From Okamejei kenojei (Eukaryota): a DNA stretch of 64,000 nt. Shown here in pieces: positions 26,881 to 64,000 of this stretch. The notes under the pieces are model-generated. The model did not search any database. It worked only from the letters and a program-made list of their open reading frames with translations, and had not been told where the DNA came from. The translations under genes were made by a program, and so were the position numbers. How positions within the stretch are numbered: position 1 is the first letter of the stretch; each line of letters begins with the position of its first letter. The stretch is taken from the NCBI GenBank assembly GCA_035221665.1, contig CM069163.1, positions 15,748,001 through 15,812,000 of the forward strand, in the 5' to 3' direction.

Positions 26881-26987
26881 CAGCTCGTCGATCAATGTCA
26901 ATTATGTAAATTCAGACAATAGTGGGTCTATTCAGCAGGTCACAGAACACCTGTGGCAGGAGAAACAAGCTTAATGTTTCAGATGCA

Positions 26988-42640: not shown

Positions 42641-42842
42641 GAGTCATTATTGACTGTCGACTACTTCCTGAAATAGCTCAACACCAGTAGCAAGAGGTGA
42701 AGGGTCATAAATGTGAGATTAGCCAGTGACATTCACACCCATGAATAAATAAAGAAGAAAATGCAGAGTTAACTTTGATTGTTAAAAGCTTCTAAATGTA
42801 AATTGCACTATAGGTACACTACACAGGTTATTAGTAAACTAC

Positions 42843-43302
42843 CATACCTGCCAACCATTCCGATTTGGGCGGAATTCTTCCGATTTTTCCATCCCAATTC
42901 CGAATTCCGATTTTTTGTCTCAATATTCCGAGAAAAAAAATCGGAAAAAAAAACCACACAGAAACTTTCTATGTGTTTTTTTTTTCCGATTTTTTTTCTC
43001 GGAATATTGAGACAAAAAAATCGGAATTGGGATGGAAAAATCCGAAAACGTCGCCTATCTCCTTCGCTCCTTAGATGCTGCTGCACCCGCTGAGTTTCTC
43101 CAGCATTTTGTGTAACCCCCCTGAGGTCACTTTCCCGCCCTCACTGACGTCACGTACCCCGCCCCTTACTGACGTCACTTGCCCCGCCCCTTACTGACGT
43201 CACCTGCCCCGCCCCTTACTGACGTCACGTGCCCCGCCCTCACTGACGTCAGACTAATAGGATTCCGATTTTTCAATCTCACAAGTTGGCAGGTAATTAG
43301 TG
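42843..43302. mobile_element. Non-autonomous hAT-like MITE, probable 6-bp TSD
   Basis: TIRs CATACCTGCCAAC / GTTGGCAGGTA[attag]TG; AACTAC at 42837-42842 and 43303-43308; terminal architecture parallels the 9574-14089 element. Confidence 0.75.
43122..43251. repeat. 25-bp tandem array of CRE palindromes and GC boxes
   Basis: TGACGTCA at 43145, 43170, 43195, 43220 and 43244, TGAGGTCA at 43122, separated by CCCGCCC. Confidence 0.88.
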
Positions 43303-43746
43303 AACTACCATAACATTTAATTTCCTCAAGAGGGGTGTTTTACTGACAGGTCTAAGACCAATGGTGTTCTGCAAGGATCTGTGCAGAGAACATGAAAATT
43401 GGAGTACTGAAATGATAGAGCAGGACACAAATCAGTTGAAAGTGTGGGCAGAGAAATGGCAGATGGTGTTTAATCCAGACTAATGTGAGATGTTAAACTT
43501 TGGGAAGCCAACTGTAAGAGGAAAGTACAGTAAATGACAACACCCTTACGAACATTGATGCACAGAGGGATTTTAGGCTGCAAATCCATAGCTTGCTGAA
43601 AGATGCAACACAAGGGGAAACGGTGGTAAAGAAGGTGTATAGCACACTCGCCTTCGTTGGTCAGTATGAAAAATTACATGCCCAATTATTTGTGAACTGG
43701 GCCCACCTAGATACATGGCCGCATGCTAAGGTAGATACTAGTAACG

Positions 43747-44242
43747 TGTAGGAAGGAACTGCTGGTTTAAATCGAAGATAGACACAAAAAGCTGGAGTAG
43801 TAGCGGGTCAGACAGCATCTCTGGAGAAAAGGAATAGGCGACGTTTCGGGTCAAGATCCTTCTTCAGACTGAGAGTCAGGGGAAAGGGAAATTAGCGATA
43901 TAGACAGTGATATAGAGTGATACAGAACAAATGAATGAAAGATATGCAAAAAAGTAACAATGACAAAGGAAATGTGCTGTTGTTAGCTGAGGGCAAGGTG
44001 AAAACGAGTTACAGACAATGAGACTCGACAAGACAACTTTGAAGCTAGTACGACTGGGTGGGGGAGGGATGAAGAGAGAGGGGATGCAAGGGTTACTTGA
44101 ATGTTAGAGAAATCAATGTTCATACCGCTGGATTGTAAACTGCCCAAGCAAAATATGACGTGCTGTTCCTCCAAATTGCTTGGCCTCACTCTGACAATGG
44201 AGGAGGCCCAGGACAGAAAGGTTAGTGTGGGAATGGGAAGGG
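43747..44242 (-). mobile_element. Penelope-like retroelement 3' fragment (GIY-YIG C-terminus plus terminal repeat with hammerhead core)
   Basis: Frameshifted peptide SPSHSHTNLSVLGLLHCQSEAK..LEEQHVIFCLGSLQSSGMNIDFSN, followed ~220 nt downstream by CTGAAGA-AGGATCTTGACCC-GAAACGTC (43837-43870). Confidence 0.8.
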
Positions 44243-45599
44243 GAATGCCAAATACTTGAATTCCCCTTTCCTGAATTTGAAACCTGACACAATCCTATCA
44301 AGTTCACTAAGACTGTTTGTATAATCTGTGCATGGTTGGTTTGAAAATATATAATCAAGCAATTGATGATTTCTAAGTCGTCATGTGGTAGAAACTTAAA
44401 GTTTGAAGTATGATGTCAATGTCGGGGAATGTAGTACAGAAGCAACCTGACAGTAGCTCATTCATGAGGCAGATCAATTGTACTGTATCAGCTGAGCCAG
44501 TGTTCTGTCCCAATGGCCGCTATGACACAGTTTCTAGCGGGGGTTCTACATTGGAAACAGATCCAGGAATCCTTGGCTGGTTTTTTTTTCTACCCATTCA
44601 AATAACTTCTGGGTCAGTGGTGCAAAATATTGAACTTTTGTCAAAGGAGAGTTTTGACTTTTAGTTTAAGGCTATGTCAGTAAAAGCAGCAAGTCCATTT
44701 TAATTTTGGATGCGAGCGGTATCACATGTCGTTAGTATTGTGTATATTGTTCCATAGTTCTGATAAACACTGCTGCGGATAATAGTGCTTTGGGCTATAG
44801 TGATGGCTAATAAAAGCCCATGCTTTTGTTCATTGTTCCCACAAGCCCAATACAGCAGTGCTGTTTGTGAAAGAAAAACAATATTTTCTAAGTTAAGGGC
44901 TGTGGGAACAAGCAGAGTAAATTCTTAAATCCTGGTTTCCTTCCCCTTAGAATTAATATCAGATTTAGCTGCCATTTACACTGAATGATTGGCCAAAATA
45001 TTTTGTATTTGTTTAAAGATACAGCATGGAAACAAACCCTTTGGCACCATCCAATATGACCTGCTGACAACGGCCGCACATCATGCACAATATAACCTTG
45101 CCCTTGTGTAATGAACACAGCAACATATTCACAGAACTGCCATTTGCATTGTAAGACCAATCATTACGTAAAAGCATGATGAACTCAAGATACTGAAGGA
45201 GATCGTGGCCACGTGCAGCAAGGCTGGGAAATAATGTGCACACTGCACTTTAGTGGGCTCTTGCTTGTCAAAAGAAAATCCAGCTACTTCCCATTTCAGA
45301 TTCTATCTGCCTATTCCATACAGTACTATTGTTGCTGAACCTCCCTCCACCCATCTCCCCACCACAGCTATTAATTTCCAGGTGTCATCATTGGTTATGA
45401 AAACGTTATGAGCATATTAAGTCGTAGCCTGTGGAGAATAACTCGCCTCCTGATACCCAAAGGCTTTTCACCATGTTCGAGGCATGTCGGGAGTGCGATG
45501 GAATTCTCTCTACTTGCCTGGATCGGTGCAGCTACAGTAATTTTCAAGAGGCTCATTGTAATCCAGGGTTAAGCAACCCCCTTGGCACCCATTTTAGTC

Positions 45600-45945
45600 T
45601 GCATAGAGAGAGAAGGTGTAGAAACGGGTTTTTTGCCCTCTGTTTCCACACCAACCATCCTAACTAACCATTTACACCAATCCTACATTAATCCTGTTTT
45701 CTTTCATTCTCATTAACTCCCATCACATTCCACTACTCTATACATAGCCAGGGAAATTTTACAGAGGCCGTTAACCAACCGACCAACATGTTTTTAGGAA
45801 GGGGGGGAAAAACGAGCACCCAGAGGAAATTGGTATATGAACCCACATGGTCACAGGGAAAATGTGCAAACTCCACACAGACTGCACTATAGGACTGATG
45901 CAAATCTGGGTCTCTGGAACTGTGAGGAAACGGCTTCAAGAGCTG
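45600..45945 (-). mobile_element. Diverged V-SINE copy
   Basis: Antisense similarity to 6802-7113 (GTGGAGTTTGCACATTT core). Confidence 0.6.
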
Positions 45946-46809
45946 CGTCTTTTGTGTAACCTTTAAAATGTTATTTCCGCTAACTGAAGAGTCTTCAGCG
46001 GGGCAGGGAGAAGAGATAGGAGACTAAACATTTCAGACTGATATGAGAAGATTTCTTTACTCGTAAGATTTTACACCTTTTCAGACCTCTAACCAGAGAA
46101 CTGCAAATGTGCAGCTGATAAATATATTCAAGAATGTTGGATTTGGCCATGGGGGAATCAAGATTTTGGGATGGATGGGGAAAAATGCACAAGGTTTGCT
46201 TTGATCTTATTAAATTACAAGGCAGACTCCAGAGAAAGTATGATTTATTTATTTTTGGTATGCGCCCATTAATATTTGGAATTTATGTCTGTTTTACTGT
46301 AACCTGACCTTGGGTTCAGGTTCTCTATGTCCCACCTAAATTATGTAAAACTTATTTCTTGTTGAGTGTGGATATTAAATGATTGCAAATAAGAGATGGC
46401 CTTTCCCATTATTTATTGTTCTCTCTGTCTGACCCTCGCTGTTCCTTGAATATAGTTGTGCTAAAGTGGAATTTATCCATTTGAAATGATTTAACAGTTC
46501 AATAGTTTAAGTATTTTTTAATTCATATTTTCTGGGTTGAATGGCTGTGAGATGGCAGAGTTTGGGACTGGACTTCCACAGATCCCCACTAGCCTATCCC
46601 TCACAATAGATAACCAACAGAGGTGGGAAAAGTTTGAGTTAGAGCAAAGAATTGAGGCATCATCTGTGGAAAGAGAAACTGCTCATGTTGCAGGACTAAG
46701 AAAGAGCCCATTAGCAATGTTTTAATTTTTATATTGGTCTACAATGATGAAATCTGGAGCATTGAATGATAATTTGTGGTGGTTCCGGTGTGCAGTTGAG
46801 TGGATGTCT

Positions 46810-47041
46810 TGTGTCCTGATTGTTGACTGGGAGCTGGAATCGGCCATTTGACCCATCAAGTCTGCTCTGGAATTCGATCGTGACGGATCTATTTTTCCTC
46901 CTCAACTGCATTCTCCTGCCTTCTTCTCATAACCTTACGTCCTTGCTAAAGAAAAGCCTATCAATCTCCACTTTAAAAATACCCAATTTCTTGATCAACA
47001 CGACCATCTGTGGCAATGAATTCCACAGATTCAACACCCTC
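46810..47041 (-). mobile_element. CR1-type LINE 3' end abutting the exon 8 acceptor
   Basis: Peptide RVLNLWNSLPQMVV...FKVEIDRL. Confidence 0.8.
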
Positions 47042-47061
47042 GTGGTCTTCTTTTCCTTCAG

Positions 47062-47165
47062 AGAGAGACGCTGCTGAGGCAATTGGAGACCAATCAGCTG
47101 GACATTGATGCCACATTGGAAGAACTCTCCGTACAGCATGAGACTGAGGACCAAAACTATGATCT
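47062..47165 (+). CDS. RABL6: RABL6 coding exon 8
   Basis: cttcag acceptor, CT|gtaggt donor, 104 nt; RETLLRQLETNQLDIDATLEELSVQHETEDQNYDL. Confidence 0.96.
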
Positions 47166-48234
47166 GTAGGTATAAGTTCAGCTTTATTTTTGTCATCTGT
47201 TAGTGAATGAATTCCATTTGAATTAGCTCTGGATATGTTCTGAATGTGGTGTTACGCTGTGGCATTTTTTCTCTCCGTAAAAATATGCATAAAATAAAAA
47301 TTTGCATAAAAATGAAAATTTAGCTGAAGCTATGAAGGGAATATGATGTCTCCAAGAAAGAATTTGTATTTATAAAATGTCCTCGTGTGTTCACAGTGAT
47401 GCAAAGCATTTTGCAATTATTTGAAGTATCCTGCTTGGTACTTAAAAAAAATCTTCCTCAGTAAGGTTGCCTAAATATTAAAGAGATAAGTAACTGGTAA
47501 GATGGTGACAGACAAGTTACGAGGGTGTTTGTTCGTGTCAGTGCCCAGTGTCTGGGAATCTTCTATCTCCACCCCAGTGTGACTGGGACCTTCCATTCAG
47601 CACATTTTAGAAAAATGGGTATCTTTGACAGTGTATCTTTCCTCCAGTAGTGCATTGAAGAAGCAACTGGAATTGTGTGCTCAAGAGGCTGAATCGTGTT
47701 ATGTCTGAAGCAAGCTTATTACCACCAGACAAAGCTGACATTTGGACAGGTGGCGTCAGACTGATCTAGCACTGGACCTTTGATCTAACTGAATTAGTAA
47801 ATCCCTATCTGCCCATGGCTTGGTTAGACAACATGAATAGCGGATAAATGTTCACAAAGTCAATCAGCGAAAGACAGCTTACTTCAAAATATTCTTATTT
47901 ATCAAAGGAGAAATTGAACGACGACCACATGTGCTCTAGGTATTTAATTGGAATGTGATGCCAGTATTTATCAGATTGTCTCTGATGTTCCATAGCATTG
48001 GTCAGCAGTCGGTCCCAGAGTTGGGATATATTTCCAGCACCCCACCCGCACTAGAACATGACAGGGTATGTCACCAACAAACAATCCTCACCCGACTGTA
48101 ACTGGTATATCACTCCAACGCCCCACCCTTGGTAGACTATAACTGGGACGTATCTCCAACACACCACTTAGGTGCATCACCAACAGCATGGCCGTGATTG
48201 GTATATAACCTAACACCCATGAATAACCTAACCC

Positions 48235-49533
48235 ACATGACCTATACCCCATCAAACTTGTATAAACTTTGAGAGGTACATAACCCCATGTTTTCCTTGG
48301 ACATGCTATAGGAATGAAATAACTCCAGGATATCTGGTGTGGACGGGACTTAATGGGGAATGGTTCAGTAGCATCAGTGTAGGCTGGTTCTTGGGAAGGA
48401 GATGGAGTTGATGGACTGGCACGCTGTGATGATCAGTGAGATGTGCTCAATGGAGTTTTCTCGGCCTTGATGCCCATTTTTATTGCTCATAATGAACCGT
48501 ACCTGGCGGTTGGTCATGATGAGTGGGATAACACTATCCTTGGATGAGAGCCACAAATGGTGTCGGATCAGTTATGATCTGTAAGAGAAGACTTGTGTCC
48601 CTGATATTGAATCTGCAGTGCCTGGGTTCTAATTTATTTATTTAAAGCTATTGTAATGTGGGATGAGTTGCTGCACAAGAGATCAGTTTTCCTTTCTCTG
48701 GCCACCTTGTAGCAAGAGAAACAGTTCCAGTGTGGCGACGCCTGGACTCACAACGTGCAGTGCACCCTTGCAAAGGTTTTTAACTACGGTGTCTACCACC
48801 CCCTCCTCCAGTCCTCCCCGGCCCCACGACTGCAACCTGTTGATATAATTCTGTAATCAGCTCAGTAAGGAGACCAACCTGGATTTTGATTAGGAGTTGG
48901 GAGCGGCTGGAAAGGCGATCCTCATCACATGCTAAATTGTAACTCTGCCTTGTCGCTGGATGTGTGATTGACCAGGTGGGTGGAAGCGTCAGAAGTCTGT
49001 TTGTTATTTTGCCAAACTGCTTGGATTATTGAACATTTTCTGCAAATGTAGCAGGCTCAAAACTTTAAATTTCTGACCCTTCTTTCGGTGTTGTGTTTGG
49101 AATCCTGGTTTGGCAGTAGAATTTTGATTATAATTATCCTCTTGTCAATTAATTCCCTCCAAAGCTTGCATGTGCATTGAGGGTTCAAGATAAGAAGCGT
49201 GTCTGCCTGTGACCCATTGTGTAATAGAAATTTGTTACTCTGAGGGTGAGACCATTTGCTTACAACAGATATTGATGAAGCAGTCTCCTCAGATTTCTTA
49301 AACCGTGTGTGGGATTTGAGTGCTCAAAGTCATCCTGATAAAGATTCCCAACATGACCTATACCCCATCAAACTTGTATAAACTTTGAGAGGTACATAAC
49401 CCCATGTTTTCCTTGGACATGCTATAGGAATGAAATAACTCCAGGATATCTGGTGGGGACGGGACTTAATGGGGAATGGTTCAGTAGCATCAGTGTAGGC
49501 TGGTTCTTGGGAAGGAGATGGAGTTGATGGACT
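48235..49533 (+). repeat. 183-bp near-identical direct repeat pair (48235-48417, 49351-49533)
   Basis: ACATGACCTATACCCC...GAGTTGATGGACT in both copies; one mismatch seen. Confidence 0.9.
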
Positions 49534-49714
49534 CAAGAATAAATTCCTTCTCATCTCGGTCTTAAATGGGTGATGCCATATTTTGCCCCTCCTGTACCAT
49601 ACCTCATAATAATGGGCACATCTGCTTAGGTGACAGGTGATGCATCCTTGCGTAAGGTACCTCAATTACTGTATCAAGGAAGGATGGCCAGCAAGTTTAT
49701 ATAAATTTGTCAAA

Positions 49715-49861
49715 AACCTCGCAAAGACACCGTTAATAAAATATGACAATGTGCACTTTAACCACATATGATTTTTTTTCTATTACAAATCCCAAATTGT
49801 GTAGTATAGAGGCAAATAAATAAATAATGGGTCTTTGTCCCAAACATTATGGAGGATACTG
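49715..49861. mobile_element. Tc1/mariner-like terminal fragment
   Basis: Ends ...GTCCCAAACATTATGGAGGATACTG followed by TA (reverse complement starts CAGT); no partner TIR seen. Confidence 0.5.
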
Positions 49862-50112
49862 TATAAAACCGGGGTGCTCTTGCCTTGATTTTGTAGGTTG
49901 TCAATATGATGGTGTACATTAGCTGTTCATTCAGTCAGAAATGCTTTGTAATTTTAGCATTATGTTTTTAGGAATCCATAAGATAGATGCTCTAATATAG
50001 ACAAGCAAGTTCCAACATGGAATGCCCAAAGACACTTGCCTTCCAGGTTGATGACCCTTCTCCACAGGTGCTGCCCGACTAACATTTCCTGTGTTTGGTT
50101 TTTGTTTTCCAG

Positions 50113-50453
50113 ATTCCTTGAGCTGATGGATAATAAGAATCGGAACTTCAATTCTCCCTTGGCAGGCAATGAGCAAAGCCCATCATCGGGCTCACAGTCA
50201 CCTGTGGTACCACCAAGCTCGGCTTCCACCACCAACTCCAGCCCAGGGACTCCTCAGCCTTCTGTCCAAGCACCACCTACTCCGTCAATGTCCCCTCTCC
50301 CTCCATCTGTGTCCCCCGCTGCTGAGCCATCTGTGCCGGTCAGTGCCCCGTCTCCTGCCAGCACCCAGGCTGCGCCCATGGTTCAGAAACGCAGCTTCAT
50401 GTCCCGACTCTTTGGATCCTCCTTCGCGTCTGATACTCCAGCCACACCGTCTG
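50113..50453 (+). CDS. RABL6: RABL6 coding exon 9 (Pro/Ser-rich)
   Basis: ttccag acceptor, G|gtaagg donor, 341 nt; FLELMDNKNRNFNSPLAGNEQSPSSGSQSPVVP...KRSFMSRLFG. Confidence 0.94.
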
Positions 50454-51648
50454 GTAAGGACTGAAACAATGCCAGGAATACACAATGTTCAAGGATAGTT
50501 GGAACAAAAATCTCCTTCAGATGGGGTACAGGAGGCATCAAGGGCCAGGTATTCCAGAGGCAAAGCAGGCAGGAGTTCTTCTGTCAGTGGAGAACTTCCT
50601 ATTGTCAGTGGTCACAGGGGACCACTTGGGATTCTGTTGCTATGGAGAATCAAGGGAAGTGCACTCGACAGGTAGAATGAGTTAAGATAAGGGGAATACT
50701 GGAAGAGCGAAGATAGTGGGGATTATAACAGGGAATAGGCTGGATGCTCCCATTTTCCATATTAATGCAGGGAGAAAAGTGGTAGAATGAGGACATCCAT
50801 TGTCAATCTCCTCATTCTTTATTTAGGATGTTCATGTTACCAGTAAAAGCAGTCTGGTGGCCCACTAAATGAGTTTTCCAAGTTCTGTCAGTGAATAGTT
50901 AATTGCCACTCAATTTATCCGTATAATTTTAAAGCAAAGTACTTTAGAATCTGGATGTCTGAAATAAAAATTGAAATATTGGTAGTTGGATGGCAATTGT
51001 GGAGAGAGAATCAGAATTTTTTTTTTCTAACCAATCTTCCTTTGGTTTTAATCCATTGTTGTTTTCCTAACTGTTCAAAATTGCATCAGTACACATCCTC
51101 CAAGGCCTCAGTGCCGCTGCTTCCTTCTTTCTCTTATTTTACACAAGTAAAGCGAGCAACATTGCAGTTTGAATGTTTGCTTCATTGATCCCAGACTGTA
51201 AATTCAATGTTCTAGTAGTCCTTTCTTTTGTCACAACTGATTGAATTGGTACCTCCTTGTCTTTCTTATCAGCAACAAATTTTCTCTGGTTGGGCAGAAG
51301 GTACAAAAACTTGAAAAACACCATATTCTTTCTTGTTGTTGTCGGACTCTTGAACTGACCTCTCTAATGCCTGGGATGAATTTCCCAATCGTCCAATCTA
51401 TTTCAATGCAGTCTTTGCACTTTTTTTCAATTTGCACTTTTTCTGTAGCTGTAGCACTATATTCTGTATTTTGTTAAATTTGTCTTTGCACTCCCTGTGT
51501 ATGGTATGGTTGGCCTCGATAGCATACAAAACAAAGTTTTTCTCTGCACCTCAGAACACATGACATCAATAAATCAATTAATGGTCCTCTGTTCCCCAAT
51601 GCTTGTCTCTCAATTTCCTTGCCCATGTTCTCTCCCCTTCCTATGCAG

Positions 51649-51796
51649 ATGCAGTAACTCCTGTGTCCCCTGAGGAAGATGGCAAGACACAATGTGTTGA
51701 TGATTTTGTCCCTGATGAGGGATTGGACAAGAACTTCTTGGATGATCTGGCACCTCAGAAGGAAAGGCTAAATGTGGCAGGGCAGGGGAGTGACAG
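51649..51796 (+). CDS. RABL6: RABL6 coding exon 10
   Basis: atgcag acceptor, AG|gtgggg donor, 148 nt; ...TQCVDDFVPDEGLDKNFLDD...GSDS. Confidence 0.92.
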
Positions 51797-52966
51797 GTGG
51801 GGCTTTTGGCACATTCACACCTACTGTTCATTTCAAAACCTACCAATTAATGGGCCTTGAAACGAGGACGACAACTCTCAGATTTCATCATGAATGTCGG
51901 CCTTGAATCTCGTTTAATGATTTACTTTTCTCAATTTCATGATAATCTAAAGAAATGAAATGTTAACGATGAATTCTGTAAGCAGCATTCAATGGGATTG
52001 TTATTACACTTGTGGTGAGAGGCAGAGATGGTTATTAATGGAAAGTGGGGGTACAGATGAAGAAGGTTTGTGCAGGAACTGGTGTTTATGGTAAGTGGGA
52101 TTAGCACAGTGTGAGACAGTGTAAATGGTTCTTTTTATCCATGTTTAGTAACTGGGCGTTGCTGCCAAGGGCAACATTTAACCAATGTTGAGCTACCTCC
52201 TTGAACCACCTGGTGTAGATGTTCCCACAATGCCATTGGGGTAAGACTTCAGGGTTGCAATCTTGCAACGTTGGAGGAACAATAATATATTTCCAAGTTA
52301 GGTTACTGTGCGACTTGGAGTGGTTTTAAAATGAACGTGATTTGTACAAGACAGGACATGGCATTATTGCCAAGTAGAATTGGGACTATGGAGGAATTAA
52401 ATGGGATTAGCATTGCACAAAAGGTGGTATTGGGAGTCGGATTAGCACCAGTCAGGGAGTGTTGTTTGTGAAGACTGCGATTCACACTATGTAGGAGGAT
52501 GAAGGGACTGGGAGTGATGAGTGCGAGGTACACTGCTGCTTTGGCAGTAAAGTGTTTGTCTTGTCCATGGGAGATGATAGATTCTTTGTAAATCTAGTCT
52601 CTGTTTCTTCCTTTCTTACAGGGTGGGGACAGGAGGAAGAGGCTATTAGTGGTGAGTAGAATATACCTTGTGCAGGATGGGCACAGGTGCAGTTAGTGGG
52701 TTTGGTGTTACACAGGATGAGCACAAAGTAGGCTGGTGTTGGTGGTGAATGGATCAGTGTCCTGCTTGGGGGGGGGGGGGCAGTATTAGTGAAGAATGGG
52801 GTAATTGCAGTGTAGAGGAGGTGGGTGAAGTAGAGTTGATGAAAGGAGCTGCTTAAATGCAATTCTAATTGAATGTGTGGTGGAGATAGTGATGGCCAGA
52901 GTGACCGTAAGAGGAGCAGAAAGATCAATTTCCCCCTCACCCTCAACTCCCCTTTACACCAAAGAG

Positions 52967-53973
52967 TAGCAATGTTACAACATTTTGAGATTTAAAAAAT
53001 CAAGTCTGCAGTTTATCCCATCAGCTAAAGCATAAAAAGAAGTTTAATTTGACACCTAATGCACTTTCATATCTGCAGTATTAAAAAACCTATGGCCATT
53101 TTCATACTCGGAAATTAGCATCTTGTACCCTATTGCTTTTCCATTGACTTAACACAAAAGCTGTGATCGAGGACAGTCAAAAGCCCAAAACTTTCTTAAA
53201 AATTTAAGAGAACTGAAATAATTTTTCAGTTATTATAGATTGAAGCATTCTGAAATAAATATGAAACAATCTTACTTGGATGACCTGAAATTAAAGCATA
53301 TAATTAGTTAGTTACCTAATTGTAGCTAATTACAAAAGTCAATTACTATATCTAAACATCTATCCATTTCTTAAGAAAAGGTTAACATTTTTAAATAGCC
53401 TAAGTGTCCAAATAACATTGACACAAGAATTCACAATATAACATGATTTTAAAATCTCATTGTCATTAATTTATAGGCCAAATGGAAGGAATTTAGTGTT
53501 TAATTCCCGTAAATTAAAGGCCATTTAAATCATCTTGCGAGTGAGATTTTGTGGAACCCGATCGTTTGGAACGTTGCATTTGCGGTGAATCTAATATTTA
53601 CATAATCACATTTTCGCATCGTGAAATTTTGATAAAGGCATCATAAGAAGCATGTTTATATGTAAATATAACGACTTTCCTGTACCTGTCCCATACGTGA
53701 GATCCGTCCCGTTGCCGGCGTTCAAGGCTTTAGAAGACAAATTTAATTTTACTCCTGCTATTAAATTATCCATCGCTAATTTTAATAAACCTGATACAAC
53801 GGCAGTCGGAGCGATTATTCTTCAGCAACTAAACAGCCTGACAAAAATCGATTTGAACAGGTTGGAGAAAAACTGCATTTTAAACCCGCCCCCCTCTCAA
53901 AGGCGCCAAAGTCGCGCACACGGCCAGTGACAGAACTGCAGCGCCGCTGAAGATAAGTTTTGAAACATACCTA
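52967..53973. mobile_element. ~1-kb non-autonomous DNA transposon, TAG...CTA termini, 7-bp TSD
   Basis: Imperfect TIRs TAGCAATGTTACAA / TTGAAACATACCTA; CAAAGAG at 52960-52966 and 53974-53980; AT-rich interior sharply unlike the flanks. Confidence 0.75.
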
Positions 53974-55422
53974 CAAAGAGGCTTTCTCAACGTACAATGA
54001 TCCATCTTGCACAAGATCTGCAGAGAAAACATTCTTCCTGGTTGCAGTCGTCAAGATTCTAGATTCCCCGAAGGGGAAACTTTGCATCTGCTTTCAATGA
54101 TATCAGACTCTTGCACTTTCAACACGTTCACTTCTCATCGTTCTATATTCCTAGACCCAACTTGCCTATTAGTTCCTCTTGACAGCCTTGTCGCCTTCAT
54201 CTACTCAGTAATATAGATTAAAATTAGCTGAGCTGCAGCATGATCTCTGAAGCCCCTCACAAGTGCAGTGTATCATTATTTGCAAGGGACTGAGGATTGA
54301 ATTGCCATTGGTTGGACAAATGTCCCATAAATTCATTGTTTTAATGAATAAATAACAATAAATCAAGTGATCTAGGGTTTGTTGCACTGAGGTAAAAGAT
54401 CTGCCAGAATCTTATTGAATGGTGGAGCAGGCATGATTGGCTGAAAGGCATTTCCTGCTTATCATTTGACTCATTACCTGGGCAATTGAAACTATGCCAG
54501 TGGAAATGTCCAACACTCTCCTGACCCAGGATTTGCAGCCCAACTTATTAGGGTACTCTGCGCCTGCCCTATGTCATTGCTTCCGGCTGCCCTACTGGCC
54601 AGGTACAGCAGAAGCTCGGTGTGTGCTGACACTTGGTATTTACATGCTGGGTTCTGTCCATCTTCAATGGCAGCTGCTCACAAAGGTCAGGCCAATGTTG
54701 GCGATGTTCCTTTCCCTTTGTCTGTGTGTAGGGCCCTTTGTGAAAAGTGGAAGCCGATTTAGGTGATTGCAACAACTATGCGACAGGGAAAGGATTCACC
54801 ACATTGACCAAGCGTCTATTTTCATGGTCTTATTTCTGGCGAAGAATTGTGTGCACTTATCATTTAAAGGTTATTGCAGCCTGTGTAGCTTCTTAAGAGC
54901 TTGGATGCTCACTGAGCAGGAAGTGAAGGAGCTTAGAGAGATCAAAGGAATGGAAGGACGTGGAAAACCAGGTTATGGCTGTCTGATATAGGAGACTGAT
55001 TGTGGTGCAGTAATTGCAAAAAATATGCAGATCATTCAGGTCTGTGGAATGTGATGGGTCACGGGGAAAGGACCAGATTCCTATGTCAGTCTGTGTGCCG
55101 AGTGAGGTGGCATCCGAGGAGGTATATGGGACAGGAGAACCTTGTGAAGGGTTTACAAATGAGGTGAAGTAAATTGGCAGCCTCACGAAGTGATGGGAGT
55201 CTTTGGAAAGACAAATATGGTGGGGCTTGGACTGGGGATATGGGACATAGGTGGAAGGTCACAGGCACTGATGTGCTTAGTCCAGCACAAGTCCAGCAGA
55301 GACCACTGTGTGGAGGGTGTGGTCATGTGCAGAGTGCCGGGGAACACGGGTGCCTGCTCTGTGATGGAAATGGTTGACCAGCTGTATTATCCACTGACCC
55401 TGCCTGTCTTTCTCTGCTGCAG

Positions 55423-55599
55423 TGAGGGCGAGAGGCAGGGCAATCCCATGGTCGCTGGCTTCCAGGATGATTTGGATTTTGATGACCAGGTGCTACAGAA
55501 GCCCAGTGTGAAATCGCACATTCCCAGTAAAGATATAACCCTGTCCAGTGACGAAGATGAAAATGCAAAAGTCGCCAGGAATATGGATCCATTAAAAAG
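55423..55599 (+). CDS. RABL6: RABL6 coding exon 11
   Basis: ctgcag acceptor, AG|gtcagt donor, 177 nt; EGERQGNPMVAGFQDDLDFDD...PSKDITLSSDEDE. Confidence 0.93.
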
Positions 55600-55679
55600 G
55601 TCAGTGCTTCATTATTGGGGAATGGAAGGAAATATGCAATGCTAAGGTTGGAGCCACAGCTCCTTACATAGAGATACCC

Positions 55680-56410
55680 AGTGGGTTGACACAAAAGTGG
55701 GTTGTTTTGTCGATAGTGAGGATGATTGTCACAATTTGCAGCAGGATCTTGATCGGTTGGGCAGATGGGCTGAGGAATGGTTGATGGAATTTAATACAGG
55801 AAAATGTGGGGTGTTGCATTTTTGGAGCACTAAGATGGGCAGGACTTGCATGATAAACGGTAGGGCTCTGGGGAGTGTTGAGGAGCAGAGGGATATAGGA
55901 GTACAGGTACATAGTTTGTTGAAAGTGGCATCAATGGTTGATAGGGTGGTCAAAAAGGCATCAGCCAGAGCATTGAGTTAAGATATGCAGTTGTATGAGG
56001 TTGTTGAGGCTGCATTAAAGTATTGTGTTCAGTTTTGGGCATCATATTCTAGGAAAGATGTTGTCAAGCTGGAAAGGGTGCAGAGAAGATTTACAAGGAT
56101 GGTGCTGGGACTCGAGGGCCTGAGCTATAGGGAGAGGTTGAGCTGGCTATGACTATTCCTTGGAGAGCAGGAGGATGAAGGGTGATCTTAATGAGGTGTA
56201 CAAAATCATGAGAGGAATAGATTGACGAGGTAGTTGAGGCAGGTACTGGCGCAACGTTTAAGAAACATTTAGAAAGGTATATGGATAGGACAGGTTTTGA
56301 GGGATATGGGCCAAACACAGGCAGGTGGACTAGTGTAGATGGGGCATATTCGCCAGTATGGGCAAGTTGGTCCGAAGGACCTGTTTCCACTCTCTAAGAC
56401 TCTATGACTA
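55680..56410 (+). mobile_element. CR1-type LINE 3' fragment
   Basis: Peptide LQQDLDRLGRWAEEWLMEFNTGKCGVLHF; tandem-repeat tail near 56400. Confidence 0.88.
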
Positions 56411-56826
56411 TAACCAGCCCTAGTGCCTAACGTCTCATAAGCAATCCACTGAGGGATGTTAGTGGTCCAGATTAAGGGTCCCGAGCCAAAACTGTCCGTT
56501 CAGATTTCTAGCGCCTGCAACTTTTATTTTCCACTTAATTAATATTATTCTTTCCCATTTTTCTCACAACAAATTTACTTCTCTTTTCTTTTCCTTAAAT
56601 TCCATCCATGACATCATAAATGTTTTATGCCTGAAATGCAGAAGTATCTGAATCAATGAATGAATATTCTATGTTAACATTGTCTAAATAAGCTGATCAC
56701 GAGCCTCGCTGCCTAAATTTCTTCTCCAGCAGCCTAAGTTCGGAGTTTATTATTGAGAAGTAATGCTAAAATTGAGCAGATAGCAAAATTATCCATTGTG
56801 CACATTACTTTCCCATTCCTTTCCAG

Positions 56827-57166
56827 GCCTTCCAAAAATTTGTTAACATCCCAAGACGGATTCTCAACCAAAGCCACTGAACGTAGCTCCGGCATTATCT
56901 CTTCTGCACTCATCCAACCTATGGGCCAGCCTGGCAATGCCCTCTTGTCCCCCATCTCTTTGACAACTGTACTAGCCCCGGTACTAGCCCCGGTGCCAGG
57001 TCCACTACATATGACGGAAGGCAAAGACCTGAGTAAAGCTCAGGCAGACAAATGCAGAGAGTCGTCTGAGAGCGACCTTGACGGGCCGATCGCCGATCAG
57101 CTGCTCTCCTTTGTACTGGATGACCCTGACTTTGAGAGTGACGATTCTGGGAAAAGACCAAAACTT
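56827..57166 (+). CDS. RABL6: RABL6 coding exon 12
   Basis: ttccag acceptor, CTT|gtaagt donor, 340 nt; ends with conserved SSESDLDGPIADQLLSFVLDDPDFESDDS; contains a 12-bp duplication (VLAP twice, 56969-56992). Confidence 0.9.
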
Positions 57167-57836
57167 GTAAGTTTCTGGACTCTAAGTTTTCATCTCCTGA
57201 ACATGAAAACATCTAAGTTTTCGTGTTCTTTGATTTTGGAGTGGTTGGGGGAGGGAATGGTGCAATTGAATAAAATGACCAATTTCAGACAGAATCAGCA
57301 GTACATTTCCAAAGCGAGCTTGAGTGGGAAAACTACTTGAGCTTTGTATAGGGAATGGTGTTTCCTGATCATTCCTGTGATGCTGCCTGCTCATTGATGA
57401 CCAGTGTACAGACTTGCTGAGTTCCAGTGCACAGCATTGCAGTCCAAGTGTGTAACTGAGGGGGAGGGGCCCAGGGTGTCAAGGGAGACATAATTGGAGA
57501 AGGAGAACTCGCCTATTCTTTCCAAAGTAAAACTGGGATCTTGTCAGATTTTCCATCCTCTCCCCCACTGAGAGGCCATGCCATTCCATTTGAATGATGC
57601 CTGCGATTGTGCCATACCTAGTCTGTACAACACTCGTGTCTTGTCCCGGGTTTCGGCTGAAGTCTGTGGGATGGGAATATGATCCACAGATTCTGACTGA
57701 AGATGAGAGCCCTAGGTGACACTACACTCTGGACCAGGGCCTGGTTGCAACCTCCCTGGATCACCTGATTTTAATTTTTCTGAATGTGCTCTCCTTTTCC
57801 TTTGTGTTGCCCTGACTCTTCACCCATTTTCGGCAG

Positions 57837-58014
57837 GAGGAGTTTCCTGTTCGAGAGGACAGCTCCGAGCTCTCTGACGATGATTTTGACTCGGCTCAGC
57901 CCAGCACGCCAGTGAAACCCCTGGTGCGAGTCGTGAAGAGGGCTGATAACCTGGACATCTTTGGCTTGGGCACCGTCAACAAAAGCCCCGCGGCCCTGGA
58001 GAGCACTGATGAAG
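57837..58014 (+). CDS. RABL6: RABL6 coding exon 13
   Basis: ggcag acceptor, G|gtgata donor, 178 nt; EEFPVREDSSELSDDD...DIFGLG...ESTDE. Confidence 0.9.
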
Positions 58015-58507
58015 GTGATAGCATGAGGTTGTGCACAAAAACCACTTTGGACTTTAATGACAATTTTAATGCTGGGTTTGATCTTGTACCAATGCTTAGA
58101 TTACCGCACCTTTCAAGTTTGCCTGTGTTACCTTATTGCGGGGCACTCGCCTCTGATGGCAAGGTTTATCCTTCACACAGCTATTCATACACCACCTGTA
58201 ATTCCCAATTCTGCAGATGCCGCTTGCTTGTATTCTCGGTGTAGATGTGTATTGGCCTCATATTTAAAGGAGAATTTGATGTGAAAATGCCACAGTTATA
58301 TCATATTGTAAGTCTGGCTTCATGACCCAGACTTACAATCATGACCCAGCCTTGGGAAAATCACTCTGATTCCTGGCTACTCAAAACAGAAAGCCTGCAC
58401 CCACCAGCACTACTCAGCTGTGCCTCAACGTGGACTGGCCAGATATGTTTCCTTTTTTTGCCAGCCGTTTACTATAGAAAAAAAAAGCGGAGAGTTGGGG
58501 AGGGGAA

Positions 58508-58619
58508 GTAGGCACAAGTCTCGCTACTTCTGCTCAGATTAATTGAATTGTTAAATTTTAGTCGTAGGCACAAGTCTCGCTACTTCTGCTCAGATTAATT
58601 GAATTGTTAAATTTTAGTC
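58508..58619 (+). repeat. Perfect 2 x 56-bp tandem duplication
   Basis: GTAGGCACAAGTCTC...TAAATTTTAGTC at 58508-58563 and 58564-58619. Confidence 0.92.
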
Positions 58620-59029
58620 AGATAAGTAGCTGAACGGCATTTGGACAGATAGGTGGATAGAAAAGGTCTGGAGGAAAATTTGTCAAATGCACTCAAACGG
58701 GATTAGCATAGTTGGGCATCCTGGTTGACATGGGCGAGTTGGGTCGAAGAGTTTATTTCTATGCTGTATGATGATGGAAAAACTACTCTTGACCATGTGT
58801 TTTGCCTCCTGTAGCATGTACAGCCAGTCCCGTGACGGTTAAAATAAATGTAGCAAAGAGAAGGCAAATAGATTTGAAGCAAATAGACAAATGCTGCCAA
58901 CCTGATGACTAAATGTGGCGTGTCCTGTATTCATTGACAACGTGTTTGGTGGTTGGCTCGAGAAACAGTTTCTGATTCTTCTCGGCCTTTCATGGAGTGC
59001 ATCATTGGTTCTGCCCCTATCCACACAGA

Positions 59030-59490
59030 TCTCAGTTTAGTTTATGGTCACATGTACCGAGGTACAGTGAAAATCTTTTTTTGCTTGTTATCCAGTCCGC
59101 GGAGAGATAATACCTGATTACAGTCGAGTCATTCACAGTGTACAGATCATGATAAGGGAATAATGTTAGTGCAAGGTAAGGCCAGTAAAGTCCGAATAAA
59201 GATGGTCTGAGGATCCCCAATGAGGTAGATAGTAGTTCAGGAGTGCACTCTGGTTGCAGTAAGGTGATGCAGTAGCCTGATAACAGCTGGGGGAAAAACT
59301 GTCCCTGAATCTGGAGGTGTGCGTTTTCACGCTTCTATTCCTTTTGCTCGATGGGAGAAGGGAGAAGAGGGGGTGGCCGGGATGTGACTCGTCCCTGATT
59401 ATGCTGCTGGCCTTGCCAAGGCAGAGTGAGGTATAAATGGAGTCAATGGAAGAGAGGTTGGTTTGTGTGATGGTCTAAGCCGCATCCATC
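59030..59490 (-). mobile_element. Rex-Babar/RTE-X-like LINE 3' fragment
   Basis: Homologous to 35660-36155 (CCCTGAATCTGGAGGT..., TGATTATGCTG.TGGCCTTGC). Confidence 0.65.
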
Positions 59491-60489
59491 TACTGGTAGA
59501 TAATCCTGAATGGTAAATTCCAGGGCTTGTTTTTCCACATGATGGATCGTAGGCTTGGAACTGCCCATTGCTGCCCGTCTCCTGCCACAGAACTCCAGGT
59601 CTTATTGTGGTCTTCAACATCTGAACAGAAACTAATTGAGATAAACCTGGAATTCAAGAATTAAAGCTAGTTTAAATTACAGTGGCTATGAGATGGCTGG
59701 AATGTTGTAAAAACATAACCTGGCTTATTAATGCTTTACAGGGTTGCCTTTGAAAACTGGTCGGCTGTAAAGTGAGCACTGGGGAATTCAAATAAAATGC
59801 TGGAAATCTGAAATAAAAACAAAATATGGATGAACAGTCTCAGATTTGAAATCTTAACAATTGTTCTTTCCACAGGTGCTGGCTGACCTGTTGAGTATTT
59901 CTGCATTGTCTGTCATTGTGTCAGGGAGCTCCATCCTTGCTCTGTCCAGGAGGAGCAGGTGAGGGCAGAAGTGTGGGAAATAGACGAGAGATAGTCCAGG
60001 GCTTTGTTAGCTGTGCCGGAGTGGAATCCACAGCTCAGGAAGAAAGAGGTCTCTGAGGCATCTGTGTGGAGACAATTGGACATTGGAGCAAATAGGACTG
60101 AGAAATAGAAAGGGGTCCATACAGGAGGCAGGATGGGACAAAGTGTGAGGTCTCAGTGGGTGGTGCTATGCCTTCACTGGCGTTTTGTCACTCGTCTGTG
60201 CCCTGAGTGTTTCCATACAGGTGCCTCTGCGATGTCTTCCTGAACTGTGGCTTCTCCTACACCAAATCGGACAGAGTCCTTGACTGCTTCTTATTTGTCT
60301 CCCACGTTTATCCATCTCTCACCCCCCCCCCCCCCCCCCCCCCTTTTCCTGGACAGAATAAATAAAATTACACCATCTCCCTTTTAGTGTTTCGAAAGGG
60401 GCGTTCCCATTATAACTGCCTAATCTTCTCTTCTGCTCCCACCAGTCTCTCCACTTCGGCATTTTCCCATTGCAGTCATGAGAGATGCA

Positions 60490-61130
60490 ATGCCTGCTGT
60501 TGCACATCTTCCCTTCCCACTTCATATCTAGTGACTACATTCGGTATTCACATTGTGGTCTCCTCTACATTGCAGTGACCTAATGCAGATGTGGTGTCCT
60601 CTTGACAGAGCACCTATGTTACTTCGACAGAAGTGATTCTGACCCTCTAGTGTTCTGCCGCTCTAATGGCCCTGTCCCACGGTATGAGTTCATTCCAAGA
60701 GCTCTCCCAAGTTTGCCCTGATTCGAACTCGGAGATTTACGATAATGGCCGCTCGTCGGTACTCTGTGCTCTTGTGGACATTTTTCAACATATTGAAAAA
60801 TCTTTACGAGTCTTCCTGAGCTTACCTGCCCGTTAGCGAGTCTTCCTGAGTACCTGCCGTTAGCGTTACGAGCCGCTAAGAGACGTCCCCGAGCACCGAC
60901 GTACCCGCTACGTTCATTGTCCGTGCTGACCACGAGTTTGATTTTTTTCAAACTCGGGAGAGCTCTTGGAATGAACTTGTACCATGGGACCGGGCCATAA
61001 TTCTCCATTCCATTCTGTCTGTGGCCTTCTGCACTGTTGCAACAAGGCCCAAAATAAGTTCGAGAAACAGCACCTCTTCTTTCTCGACCTGTTGGATTCT
61101 TGGGCTTGATGTCAAATCCAACTGTTCTGG
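60490..61130 (+). mobile_element. Degraded Penelope GIY-YIG fragment split by a Harbinger MITE
   Basis: Remnant codons for ...CGLLYI..TxCR....EHL before the MITE and GLLHC...K.EKQHL after it, matching the 44100-44240 copy. Confidence 0.55.
60667..60997. mobile_element. PIF/Harbinger-type MITE, 331 bp
   Basis: ~45-bp TIRs TGGCCCTGTCCCACGGTATGAGTTCATTCCAAGAGCTCTCCC / GGGAGAGCTCTTGGAATGAACTTGTACCATGGGACCGGGCCA; TAA at 60664-60666 and 60998-61000. Confidence 0.88.
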
Positions 61131-61484
61131 GTAACTTATTCTCTCTGTCTGGATCAGAATGGGCTGGGTCACCATCGTGATAGTGGCTCCATTAGCATAG
61201 CCTAACCTGGGCATGCCCTGTAGACCTGCCTTCTGCAACATCATGGCATTCCCTTGTCTGCCCATGCTCTCTAACTGAATAATTTCACAGCTTCTGTGAA
61301 CAGAAGACTATTTCCCCCACCCTACCTGCCCTCCATTCACCAGATGAACTCATGTAAACTGTATCCTGGCCTCACATGATCAATGATCCCCTTGGTCCTA
61401 TCCATTCTCCCTGCAACTTTCTTCTAACTTGCTGTCTCTCCTTCCCTGTCCTAAGGAAGGGTCTTCAACCCAAAGCAATGGTTC

Positions 61485-62340
61485 AATGGTCTTTTATTGT
61501 CACGTGTGCGAAGTACAGTGAGATTTGATTTACCATACGGTCATACCAAAAACGCAATATGATACAAAACGAAATAAAGATTAAACATAAACAGTCACCA
61601 CATCGGCGTGTGAGAATCCCTACGGCACACAACATAAGTGGAGACCCATAGCAATCAGTTCAATGTCCAGGGCCACACACTCGCCCCTTCACCGTGATAT
61701 GACCAGAGTTGTACCGACCGCTGCCACTCTCTCTGCAGTCCCTGTCCACCTGAACAGTCAGAAAGCCGTCCACACTCGCAGCAGACTCCTGGATGTTCTC
61801 TTGGCGCGATGTCCCCGCAAATACCGTGATCACTGCACTCACGGCAATCCCTCCGAGTCCCCATCACGCAGGCAGAGCGTCCATCTTGTTTTTCAGCTAC
61901 CTCACATTCCCCACTGTGATGGAAGGCAAATAACTTTTACATTCCTCCTTTTCTCTCACGGTCGAGGTGATCGAAACATCCGCAGTCGGGGCGATCGTAA
62001 CTCCCGCAGTCGGCGATCGAAGCCCCCGCAACGGGGCGATCGAGGCTCCCGCGATCGGGATGGTCGAATATCCTGCGGTTGGAGCTCCCACAGTCGATCC
62101 CTAACAAAGGGACCGACCGCCAGCTCCACGATGTTAGGCTGCAGTGCGGATGGAGACGCGATATGGAAAAAGTAGCATCTCCGTCGAGGGAAGAGATTAA
62201 AAAAAAGTTTCCCCCAAACACCCCACATAATACAAAACTAAAGATACGCTAAAACATACAAATAAAAACAGACTAAAAACAACAAAAGAAGAAAGGGACG
62301 AGACAGGCTGTTGGCGAGGTTGCCACATATGGAGCCACCC
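61485..62340 (-). mobile_element. Non-coding dispersed repeat related to 14510-15299 and 22216-23046
   Basis: Shared blocks CACATTCCCCACTGTGATGGAAGGCAA, GCAGTGCGGATGGAGAC, GCATCTCCGTCGAG. Confidence 0.6.
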
Positions 62341-62803
62341 GGTGGTCCTATCCATTCGCCCTGCAGCTTTCTTCTAACTTGCCTTCTCTCCTTCCCTGCC
62401 GTAAGGAATGAGTCTTCAACTCAAAGCATTATGTTGTTTCTCTTTCCACAGATGCGACCCGACCTGGTGAATGCTTCCAATATTCAATGTTTTTAATTCA
62501 GATTTCCAGCATCTGCACTGTTATTGATTTTCAAAAATGGTTGGTGATCACAGTGCATCAAATGTTGCCTGTTGTGAAGGTCTCTGAATCGCAGGCGAGA
62601 GCCGTGTCTCCCTAACCTCAGGATTCAAATGCCGGAAAACATTTGCGCTAGGTTGAGTGGAGTTGCAGTGATGTGCCCTGCATTCTCACTAACCTGCTCG
62701 CCACTCATTCCTCTCTCCAGGGACCCTCCCTATTGCTGAGCTTAACCTGGATTATTGTTACCAGCTCACCGTTGACTCAAATTGTCTTTGAATTTCTTAA
62801 CAG

Positions 62804-62853
62804 AAAAAACGAGCAAGGCTTCCTTGAAAGACAAGAAGAAAAAGAAGAAAAAT
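62804..62853 (+). CDS. RABL6: RABL6 coding exon 14 (Lys-rich)
   Basis: taacag acceptor, AAT|gtgagc donor, 50 nt, phase 1/0; EKTSKASLKDKKKKKKN. The terminal exon was not found in the window. Confidence 0.85.
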
Positions 62854-63420
62854 GTGAGCGAGTTACATTGTTTTCCATACCAATTAACAATCATTGCGCT
62901 GTTGTATATTCTGAGGACAGGAACCTGGAAAGTACAGAGTAGCTGTTGAGATGGGAAGTAGGGAGGCAGGAACAATTGATCATGATGGAAGGTTTATGAT
63001 TGGTCCCACTTCATGGACATTAACCTGCACTCGGGTCTTGCAAACCAATGCCCTGCTGACCTCGGAGCATGGTATTGAAGCAAGACCCGTCTGCCTGTTC
63101 AACTGAGCTCAATGATCCTGTGATCATTCCCAAGGGAAGCAGAACAGTTCTCTGAATGTTACTGTAGATACTTGTCCTTCACCCAATATTGATTATGTGA
63201 TCGTTTCTAAGACTGTAGAAAATGCAATTTCGTTCAAATCAAAAATAAAAGGCATTCTATTCTATTCTATCCCAGTGCTATGTGTGGCATCTTGCTGACT
63301 GCAAATTGCTGCCTTTGCTATATTACAAAATGGACTACACTTCAAAAGTACTTGATTGACTGTGTGGCCCTCTGGAACATCCAAACACTGATACCTCCAG
63401 TGTCCCCCTCCCTGAGTCTC

Positions 63421-63454
63421 GGTCTGATGAAGGGTCTGGACTCGAAACGTCACC
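63421..63454 (+). ncRNA. Putative minimal type I hammerhead ribozyme (Penelope type), best-preserved copy
   Basis: GGT-CTGATGA-A-GGGTC(TG)GACTC-GAAA-C-GTC-ACC: stem I GGT/ACC, canonical CUGAUGA and GAAA boxes, GUC cleavage triplet, palindromic ACGT in place of stem III. Confidence 0.65.
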
Positions 63455-63810
63455 TATTCCTTTTCTCCAGAGATGCTGCCTGACCTGCTGAGTTACTCCA
63501 GTATTTTGTGTCTATAAACACTGAAGGAACTTTGGGTAGGGCTGTGGAGAAATTAGGCTTTTGTAGCAAAGTTCACCAAAACCAGAGGGCTTGCTCATCC
63601 AGTTAATGGCCCACGACGATTGCTTATTGCTGGTTCCCTCAGTTCTGTCGAGCCAGATCCTGGATGGAGAAGTGTCGAGAGTGCTAAATGGGTTTAACTC
63701 GCATCAGAGTTCTGATGCTGAAAGCTATAGCACTCCACTGGCCTTTTATAATATGATTATAAATGATGCCAGTATTATAGGTGTTCCATCTCAACAATTG
63801 GATTCTTGTG

Positions 63811-63902
63811 GGTACACAAAAGGCTGGAGAAACTCAGCGGGTACAGCAGCATCTAAGGAGCGAAGGAGATAGGCGACGTTTCGGGTCGAGACCCTTCTTC
63901 GC
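63811..63902 (-). mobile_element. Short Penelope-derived element with 17-bp flanking direct repeat
   Basis: ACAATTGGATTCTTGTG at 63794-63810 and 63903-63919; the hammerhead core is truncated at the CUGA box. Confidence 0.72.
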
Positions 63903-64000
63903 ACAATTGGATTCTTGTGTTTAGGTTTAAGTTTCTTATTGTCCCGTGTACTGACCTACAGTGAAAAACTTTATTTACATGCCAAACAATAAAAATAGAT

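Follow-up and report, generated by a model that had tools for sequence, protein, structure and literature searches.

The stretch of DNA analyzed here (the window), 64,000 nucleotides of the Okamejei kenojei genome, carries a real and complete minimal hammerhead sequence, a self-cutting motif, at positions 63421-63454 of its forward strand. Very probably, this is the minimal hammerhead of a terminal repeat (pLTR) of a Penelope-like retrotransposon (PLE), carried into the last intron of the RABL6 gene by a 124-bp truncated insertion and likely inert there. The motif is a 34-nt string whose parts can be read directly from the sequence:

63421..63454, + strand: minimal type I hammerhead motif, recognized from the sequence, classed as intact, and accompanied by a shuffle control
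63421-63423 (5' arm) and 63452-63454 (3' arm), + strand: stem I arms of the 63424 copy, GGU/ACC, 3 bp
63424-63430, + strand: CUGAUGA box
63431, + strand: extra A after A9
63432-63435/63440-63443, + strand: stem II of the 63424 copy, 4 bp, GGGU/ACUC, one G.U pair
63444-63447, + strand: GAAA box
63447-63450, + strand: ACGU palindrome
63451, + strand: N17 (here C17) of the GUC site, with the cut predicted after 63451

Named for its C3 at 63424 and running to N17 at 63451, the 63424 copy has the CUGANGA and GAAA boxes, U16.1, and an H17 cleavage triplet. Its stem II is closed by G10.1-C11.1, and one extra nucleotide follows A9, a position occupied by A in 74 of 81 seeds. There is no helix III loop, and the palindrome at 15.1-16.1 is suited to dimer pairing. 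The original prediction for this DNA had described the string as two boxes, stem II, a 3-bp stem I, and a GUC site, all of which was confirmed letter by letter. Could it have arisen by chance? With at most one mismatch, the core pattern matches 7 times in the window versus 0.00 in 100 shuffles. A chance match as the origin of the motif is ruled out by these shuffles, by the genome-wide counts given below, and by reversed-pattern controls of 0. An Rfam scan of the window at gathering scores gave 0 matches.

The motif heads a repeat of about 95 to 130 nt, with 23 of 35 rows in the window, self included, at an E value of ≤0.001. Copies were called intact if they had both boxes, G10.1-C11.1, at least three stem II pairs, the palindrome, and UH. 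The copies that matter here, beside that at 63424, are as follows (TSD, target-site duplication):

4483..4578, + strand: sense pLTR copy in a CCDC183-like intron; core 4485 has C11.1>U, a broken palindrome (ACAU), and no stem I left
6229..6320, - strand: antisense pLTR copy in a CCDC183-like intron; intact core 6318, GUU site, 16-bp TSD
16623..16755, strand unassigned (.): head-to-head inverted pair of partial pLTRs, neither of which spans the full core
19120..19217, + strand: sense pLTR copy in a RABL6 intron; core 19127 has intact boxes, ACUU for ACGU, and a 3-bp stem II; 17-18-bp TSD
34700..34794, - strand: antisense pLTR copy; core 34789 has A9>U and a broken palindrome (ACAU)
40571..40664, - strand: antisense pLTR copy with an intact core, 40658
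43778..44294, - strand: longer 3' fragment of the element, antisense to RABL6, with a decayed ORF end (the 43986-44294 frame), 3' UTR, and an intact hammerhead
63813..63904, - strand: antisense pLTR copy in the last RABL6 intron; core 63902 has lost C3 and U4 at the 5' junction; 16-17-bp TSD

Eight of the window's sites had been named beforehand as recognizable cores. All eight are indeed copies of one repeat, but only four hold intact cores: 63424(+), 6318(-, with a GUU site), 40658(-), and 43867(-). The sole sense copy among these is 63424(+). Since only four of the eight pass as intact, a single intact sense copy is left for RABL6, and none for the part of CCDC183 that was mapped. Inverted pLTR pairs comparable to that at 16623-16755 lie at 30438-30596 and 33986-34150. 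Diverged, much older copies with decayed cores are found at 9062-9148, 27031-27103, 34483-34566, 59829-59914, and 62416-62495, their divergence pointing to probable earlier waves of the pLTR family.

The insertion and its host genes are laid out in this way:

63392..63515, + strand: 5'-truncated pLTR (terminal repeat) insertion, 124 bp, from a TSD search and similarity to loci L038 and L047
62854..64000 in the window, + strand: last intron of RABL6, from a tblastn exon map, with GT at 62854 and the AG end at window-equivalent 65892
16387..64000, continuing to window-equivalent 66123, + strand: RABL6 host gene, from homologues, the exon map, and contigs
1..7441, + strand: 3' part of the CCDC183-like host gene, exons 938-1105, 1940-2074, 6419-6502, and 7277-7441

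A 9-bp TSD at 63383-63391 and 63516-63524 brackets the 63392-63515 insertion. Over 112 nt, the 63424 copy shares 86% identity with a copy 3' of the ORF end in L038, and over 91 nt it shares 82% with the pLTRs of L047; judged by its sequence, it belongs to a different subfamily from the L047 repeats. Host exons were mapped by tblastn over the window plus neighboring DNA, and the nearest homologues of both the CCDC183-like gene and RABL6 in the homologue searches come from skates, rays, and sharks. Five upstream RABL6 exon pairs are spliced at GT..AG ends in contigs of probable RNA runs (four such runs from one study; the last RABL6 intron extends past the stretch covered). Homologues, exon map, and spliced joints thus bear out the earlier assignment of both genes, RABL6 and CCDC183 (CCDC183-like), to the + strand.

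Several other features share the window. Between the CCDC183-like gene and RABL6, at 10616-13817 (+), there are transposase-like frames of 440 and 367 aa; the former has a 90-nt tandem duplication inside, and the latter a hAT dimerization domain (PF05699, E 8.9e-8). A 59-nt inverted repeat at 9269-9327/14241-14299 (80%) may mark the ends of a transposase-bearing element. Just 5' of the RABL6 start codon, at 15962-16245, lies a GC-rich tandem repeat with units of 47 to 51 nt. The 25-nt tandem units at 43138-43237 each contain TGACGTCA, which we take to be a CRE-like site, and adjoin a partial pLTR and a 54-bp hairpin at 42911-43019. Fragments at 38728-39190 and 41685-41981 presumably resemble the 3' end of a CR1/L2-type LINE frame. 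Two local duplications at 99% identity, 32489-32649/33035-33195 (161 nt) and 48232-48417/49348-49533 (186 nt), are either recent duplications or assembly artifacts.

How abundant is the motif? Two exact patterns found 51,840 and 63,343 matches genome-wide, evenly divided between the strands, with reversed-pattern controls of 0. The 63,343-match strict pattern, with a density of about 20 per Mb of genome, asks for a 2-bp stem I, and the 63424 copy itself misses it by its G.U pair. A 3-bp stem I pattern, by comparison, has 5,921 exact genome-wide matches, the 63424 copy included. The 3-bp GGU/ACC stem I is thus a minority form rather than the family norm: of 295 ungapped copies, from a set of 337 full-cover copies, 213 have an A.C mismatch at the third stem I position. 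In 1,472,728 bp of gene bodies we counted 672 repeat fragments, 64 of them intact; extrapolated from eight genes, the genome would hold some 1.2 million fragments, about 120,000 of them with intact motifs. The expectation of a very high-copy, ribozyme-bearing repeat was therefore borne out by the 63,343 strict matches. Published hammerhead counts, obtained by a different search method, are about 4,000 for coelacanth and about 9,000 for Xenopus (PMC4209133), so that the intact-motif load here lies several times above published vertebrate counts, search methods differing. The class of minimal hammerheads is already published, and only the copy number stands out here. Our literature search of openly readable main texts found no hammerhead paper on skates or sharks. 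The survey in a 2026 preprint includes one chondrichthyan genome, which its main text does not name (bioRxiv 2026.07.22.740005), and the supplements of PMC4209133 or of that preprint may already list a cartilaginous-fish motif.

What kind of element lies behind the repeat? In the fragment at 43778-44294 (-), the hammerhead runs from C3 at 43867 to N17 at 43840, and 16 of 26 residues of the frame before it are identical to the C terminus of the L047 ORF. This ORF-end fragment has 76,690 first-look candidates genome-wide. A longer ORF fragment, P0001, matched six longer proteins; PF26215 is present in five, one of which has an RT domain (PF00078) as well. Pfam found no family in seven short ORF-end fragments, that of the window included; the identity of these fragments is taken from homologues and the full-length locus, not from Pfam. 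A search of the genome with an RT segment gave 33,684 candidates, some of them in open frames of more than 1,000 codons without stops.

The full-length locus, L047 (G000:C6:42871500-42881400), is a partial tandem consisting of a hammerhead, a 1,185-aa frame, a second hammerhead, and a TSD. Its hammerheads are 3,954 nt apart, and its two repeats are 99.8% identical over 494 nt. The frame, at L047:3661-7215 (-), begins with a long Pro/Ser-rich N-terminal stretch before the RT and is about 300 aa longer than a relative, P0006 (889 aa). RVT_1 was matched at 669-839 (E 4.5e-6) and GIY-YIG at 1089-1122 (E 0.004), both under the curated cutoff. Between RT and endonuclease is a Cys-rich, Zn-finger-like linker, C-x2-x2-C-x2-C in L047, that is conserved in alignment A1, and identity to six relatives is 46 to 67%. 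Fifteen other loci, chosen for long RT frames, match the 3' end of L047 at 96 to 100%, showing that the element family is young and was active recently. With hammerheads located in both pLTRs of an RT plus GIY-YIG element, sequence comparison identifies the repeat as the terminal repeat of a Penelope-like retrotransposon. The earlier description of the motif as a Penelope-type hammerhead is strengthened by this frame lying between two hammerheads.

The anatomy of the element includes partial tandem pLTRs, inverted 5' copies, a 3' tail, and a TSD. Inverted partial repeats lie directly 5' of 141 of 389 full-cover copies. A histogram of 3' ends shows that insertions end about 65 to 100 nt downstream of the predicted cut site and hints at two preferred 3' ends a 30-40-nt tail apart. 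The first ATG of the element is about 135 nt downstream of the cut site. At L042:4415-4519, about 105 nt hold three perfect hammerhead cores; two of them follow each other in tandem at a distance of 44 nt and the third is inverted, an arrangement that is a candidate natural cis dimer. In the main subfamilies, a pyrimidine tract and then an AG, resembling a 3' splice site, follow about 20 nt past the cut site (window 63455-63470 and equivalents). Splice-type ends in the direction of the element were seen at 0 of the 15 joints listed of 51 in the RNA-run contigs, and the two L047 repeats do not differ by an intron; an intron within the pLTR is unsupported.

These features suggest how the ribozyme may have spread. 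(i) When transcription of a master element reads through both of its repeats, the two on that RNA would pair by way of ACGU and stem I. (ii) The paired repeats would cut after GUC, probably helped by the protein of the element, trimming unit-length RNA. (iii) Reverse transcription would start some 65 to 100 nt past the cut site, in most cases aborting early. (iv) Most insertions would then be a short 3' end that happens to contain the ribozyme. We infer that the ribozyme is carried into introns because insertions end so close downstream of the cut site and truncate early. (v) Inserted copies decay without visible selection, fastest at CpGs, including G12 and the palindrome. What is known of related ribozymes bears on step (ii): according to PMC4209133, single minimal hammerheads are inactive and dimers weak; one of nine Xenopus dimers cut (bioRxiv 2026.07.22.740005); and the Anolis PLE hammerhead, as described in PMC11167929, cuts only with the protein of the element, is dispensable for insertion in vitro, and had no RNA-seq ends found at its site.

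Might the short copies be an independent, non-autonomous family, retrozyme- or SINE-like, multiplying through its own circular RNA, rather than truncations? Retrozymes derived from pLTRs have been described (bioRxiv 2026.07.22.740005), and the 63424 subfamily is just 82% identical to the L047 repeats. A tandem repeat lies upstream in 34 of 389 copies, but copies are mostly dispersed monomers. A TSD was found for 25 of 132 unique-flank copies, a small sample, and in 15 of these 25 it ends no more than 11 nt from C3. Finally, 5' ends are continuous into the 3' UTR (82 of 389 copies have common upstream sequence) and the ORF end, in the 63424 subfamily too. An independent family is thus unlikely, and truncation of the Penelope-like element is the reading followed below.

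Is the motif under selection? Between lineages, sequence comparison suggests a selected ribozyme; within the genome of Okamejei kenojei, it suggests none. Eighty metagenome loci encoding related proteins were searched, and 25 of them contained 29 matches to the motif, 24 on the ORF strand, versus 0 to 2 in 20 shuffles. The extra A is present in 28 of the 29, under a pattern that permitted 0 or 1. We aligned 18 motifs, namely 13 of the 29 distant ones, chosen for variety, and 5 copies from the genome itself. The boxes are invariant, having been required by the search. Because the search demanded boxes and stem II, independent evidence comes only from stem I and the palindrome. Two-sided changes occur at the three stem I pairs in 7, 11, and 7 cells, and the covariation score is 0.717 versus 0.184 for shuffled and ≤0.132 for slid alignments, kinship among sequences inflating such scores. 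In the palindrome, 91.7% of cells are paired, without two-sided changes. The covariation that the original prediction proposed to look for is thus present in stem I across distant relatives.

Among copies of the genome itself, no covariation was found, the two-sided stem II changes numbering 8, 3, 0, and 2 in the 337 full-cover copies. In this same set, non-CpG core positions were changed in 222 of 3317 cases (6.7%) and downstream positions in 612 of 8527 (7.2%; P = 0.38), a change being any departure from the commonest letter and the downstream positions being 26 columns hand-picked as nearly invariant. When every downstream non-CpG column is taken for comparison, with changes at 15.1% of positions, the core is better kept, which reflects subfamily differences. 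Excess conservation of the core, the absence of which within the family had been offered as grounds for doubting the ribozyme, is therefore not seen against the best-kept downstream columns. CpG sites decay the most visibly, with G12 changed in 22 to 27% of copies and the palindrome CG in 25 to 26%. Among truncated copies there is no peak of 5' ends at the cut site (15 in the 5-nt cut bin, 16 and 19 in those beside it), and so no genomic trace of cleaved templates.

Do intact sense copies cut the host pre-mRNAs that contain them, with a partner on the same transcript, a partner on another transcript, or the protein of the element? Cutting on any meaningful scale is improbable, even though several observations would permit it. 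The repeat is heavily covered in contigs of the probable RNA runs (depth is not expression), partner copies are plentiful given at least 63,343 strict motifs, the protein may be made, since long RT frames without stops exist, and stem I of the 63424 copy is better than that of the master copy. It had been suggested that two sense copies within RABL6 or CCDC183 pre-mRNA could pair and cut the transcript, but with a single intact sense copy in the former and none in the mapped part of the latter, this finds no footing. The best RABL6 partner of the 63424 copy is 19127(+), 44 kb away, and the active fold of the two is predicted at +1.0 kcal/mol versus -18.7 for the best fold. For a 63424 homodimer, the active fold is -4.7 kcal/mol versus -11.4 for two monomers and -26.8 for the best fold. 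The young master copy, with its 2-bp stem I, has an active dimer of -6.7 kcal/mol versus -9.6 for two monomers; this short stem and the lesser stability of the dimer make the activity of the master itself uncertain. All of these energies ignore Mg2+, tertiary contacts, proteins, and cotranscriptional timing.

A further predicted obstacle to cutting is an antisense copy about 300 nt downstream of the 63424 copy, transcribed only 350 to 480 nt later. Folding predicts a duplex of about 90 bp between 63422-63513 and this antisense copy at 63811-63904, with most pairs near probability 1 and stem II at 0, so that the 63424 copy would be sequestered within its own intron. Inverted copy pairs that form such long duplexes should, to judge from these predictions, be common in the genome. 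If the duplex forms, the inverted pair 63392-63515 plus 63813-63904 is a likely substrate for A-to-I editing.

Depletion of intact sense copies from introns would speak for host cutting, and the original prediction proposed to look for it. Our sample consisted of eight gene bodies, namely both genes of the window together with four spectrin-repeat and two sushi-domain clusters; the gene strand was taken from exon hits, on the assumption of one transcription unit between same-strand hits. Depletion was not seen in these eight: over 1.47 Mb there were 35 intact sense and 29 intact antisense copies (P = 0.53; confidence interval, 0.42 to 0.67), a result compatible with mild depletion at its lower limit of 42% sense. 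All copies together numbered 355 sense and 317 antisense (P = 0.15). For the strict pattern, the first 1.27 Mb held 22 sense and 17 antisense matches versus 14.6 expected per strand from the genome mean. Nor do sense copies have an excess of core mutations: core plus G12 changes stand at 7.6% in sense versus 9.0% in antisense copies (P = 0.13). Copies with intact boxes and a broken palindrome number 27 sense versus 11 antisense (P = 0.014, uncorrected and post hoc), 13:1 in one gene, an excess that runs against depletion. Lastly, only 2 of the 35 intact sense copies, and 2 of the 64 intact copies overall, have an intact same-strand neighbor within 500 nt. Cutting of the host transcript by the 63424 copy is not supported, and folding and strand counts together suggest that this copy is likely inert.

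Could RABL6 have domesticated the 63424 copy for tuning the splicing or 3' end formation of its last intron, like the intronic hammerheads of amniotes (PMC6155905)? The idea may be prompted by its position in the last intron, by its 3-bp stem I, and by its being the sole intact sense copy of the gene, but is very hard to credit. A sample average of one intact sense copy per 42 kb (35 in 1.47 Mb) predicts one in a 50-kb gene, which is what RABL6 has; the 3-bp stem I is common to 5,921 copies; and the copy keeps an ordinary TSD and is without the stable stem III needed for working alone. An inert, truncated pLTR insertion remains the preferred account.

One bolder speculation is that element protein or partner RNAs activate intronic copies when the element is expressed (in the germ line or under stress), nicking host pre-mRNAs transcriptome-wide. 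We think this a long shot. If true, this genome, with its tens of thousands of intact minimal hammerheads and a master element that is still active, would be without known parallel, and the nicking would have to be too rare or too dependent on conditions to show up as a strand bias in the eight genes sampled. At about 20 strict motifs per Mb, an annotated test for strand bias in introns would be very powerful, and the present sample suggests no bias. L047, young and apparently complete, is a ready substrate for asking what PLE hammerheads do.

How does the element compare with known systems? The motif agrees with the minimal hammerheads of metazoan PLEs, as presented in PMC4209133, in its type I topology, which lacks helix III and loop 3, in the palindrome at 15.2-16.2, in the additional nucleotide that separates 9 from 10.1, and in G10.1-C11.1, as well as in its presence in both pLTRs and mostly as dispersed single motifs. 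It differs in number and variety, with 63,343 strict matches and low sequence variety here versus about 4,000 and 9,000 there, by other search methods. Stem I is 2 bp in the young master, like that of D. virilis, versus 4 to 5 bp in Schistosoma (PMC4209133). No cartilaginous fish was found among the hammerhead hosts in the text consulted of that paper. As for the protein, the Neptune/Nematis-type EN+ PLEs described in PMC8557442 share with L047 a single ORF with RT and then a C-terminal GIY-YIG, a Cys-rich linker (there a mark of the Neptune and Nematis clades), partial tandem pLTRs, inverted 5'-truncated copies, and a 3' tail. By ORF layout and linker, Neptune/Nematis appears to be the closest known type for L047.

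The Poseidon element PAc of Anolis carolinensis, according to PMC11167929, likewise has a pLTR hammerhead upstream of the reverse-transcription start sites and two preferred 3' ends separated by a 30-40-nt tail. PAc is a member of the Penelope/Poseidon clade. Its ORF begins within the ribozyme itself, whereas here the first ATG is about 135 nt downstream; protein-assisted cleavage was shown for PAc, whereas for the present element we only infer it. Animal non-LTR retrozymes, as characterized in bioRxiv 10.64898/2026.07.22.740005, also carry a type I hammerhead derived from PLE pLTRs. Those are tandem arrays of hammerhead units, whereas the copies in the window are dispersed monomers or inverted pairs. 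The 63424 copy is a monomer with its own TSD, not part of a retrozyme-type tandem array with complete hammerheads in consecutive units. The same preprint reports intron avoidance in Xenopus, in contrast to the gene bodies sampled here, with their 22 sense and 17 antisense strict matches versus 14.6 expected. Finally, the domesticated intronic hammerheads of amniotes, such as that of RECK, resemble the 63424 copy in being type I and lying on the sense strand of a host intron; as PMC6155905 describes them, they are conserved at orthologous sites, while the 63424 copy belongs to a mobile family with tens of thousands of members and still has its TSD.
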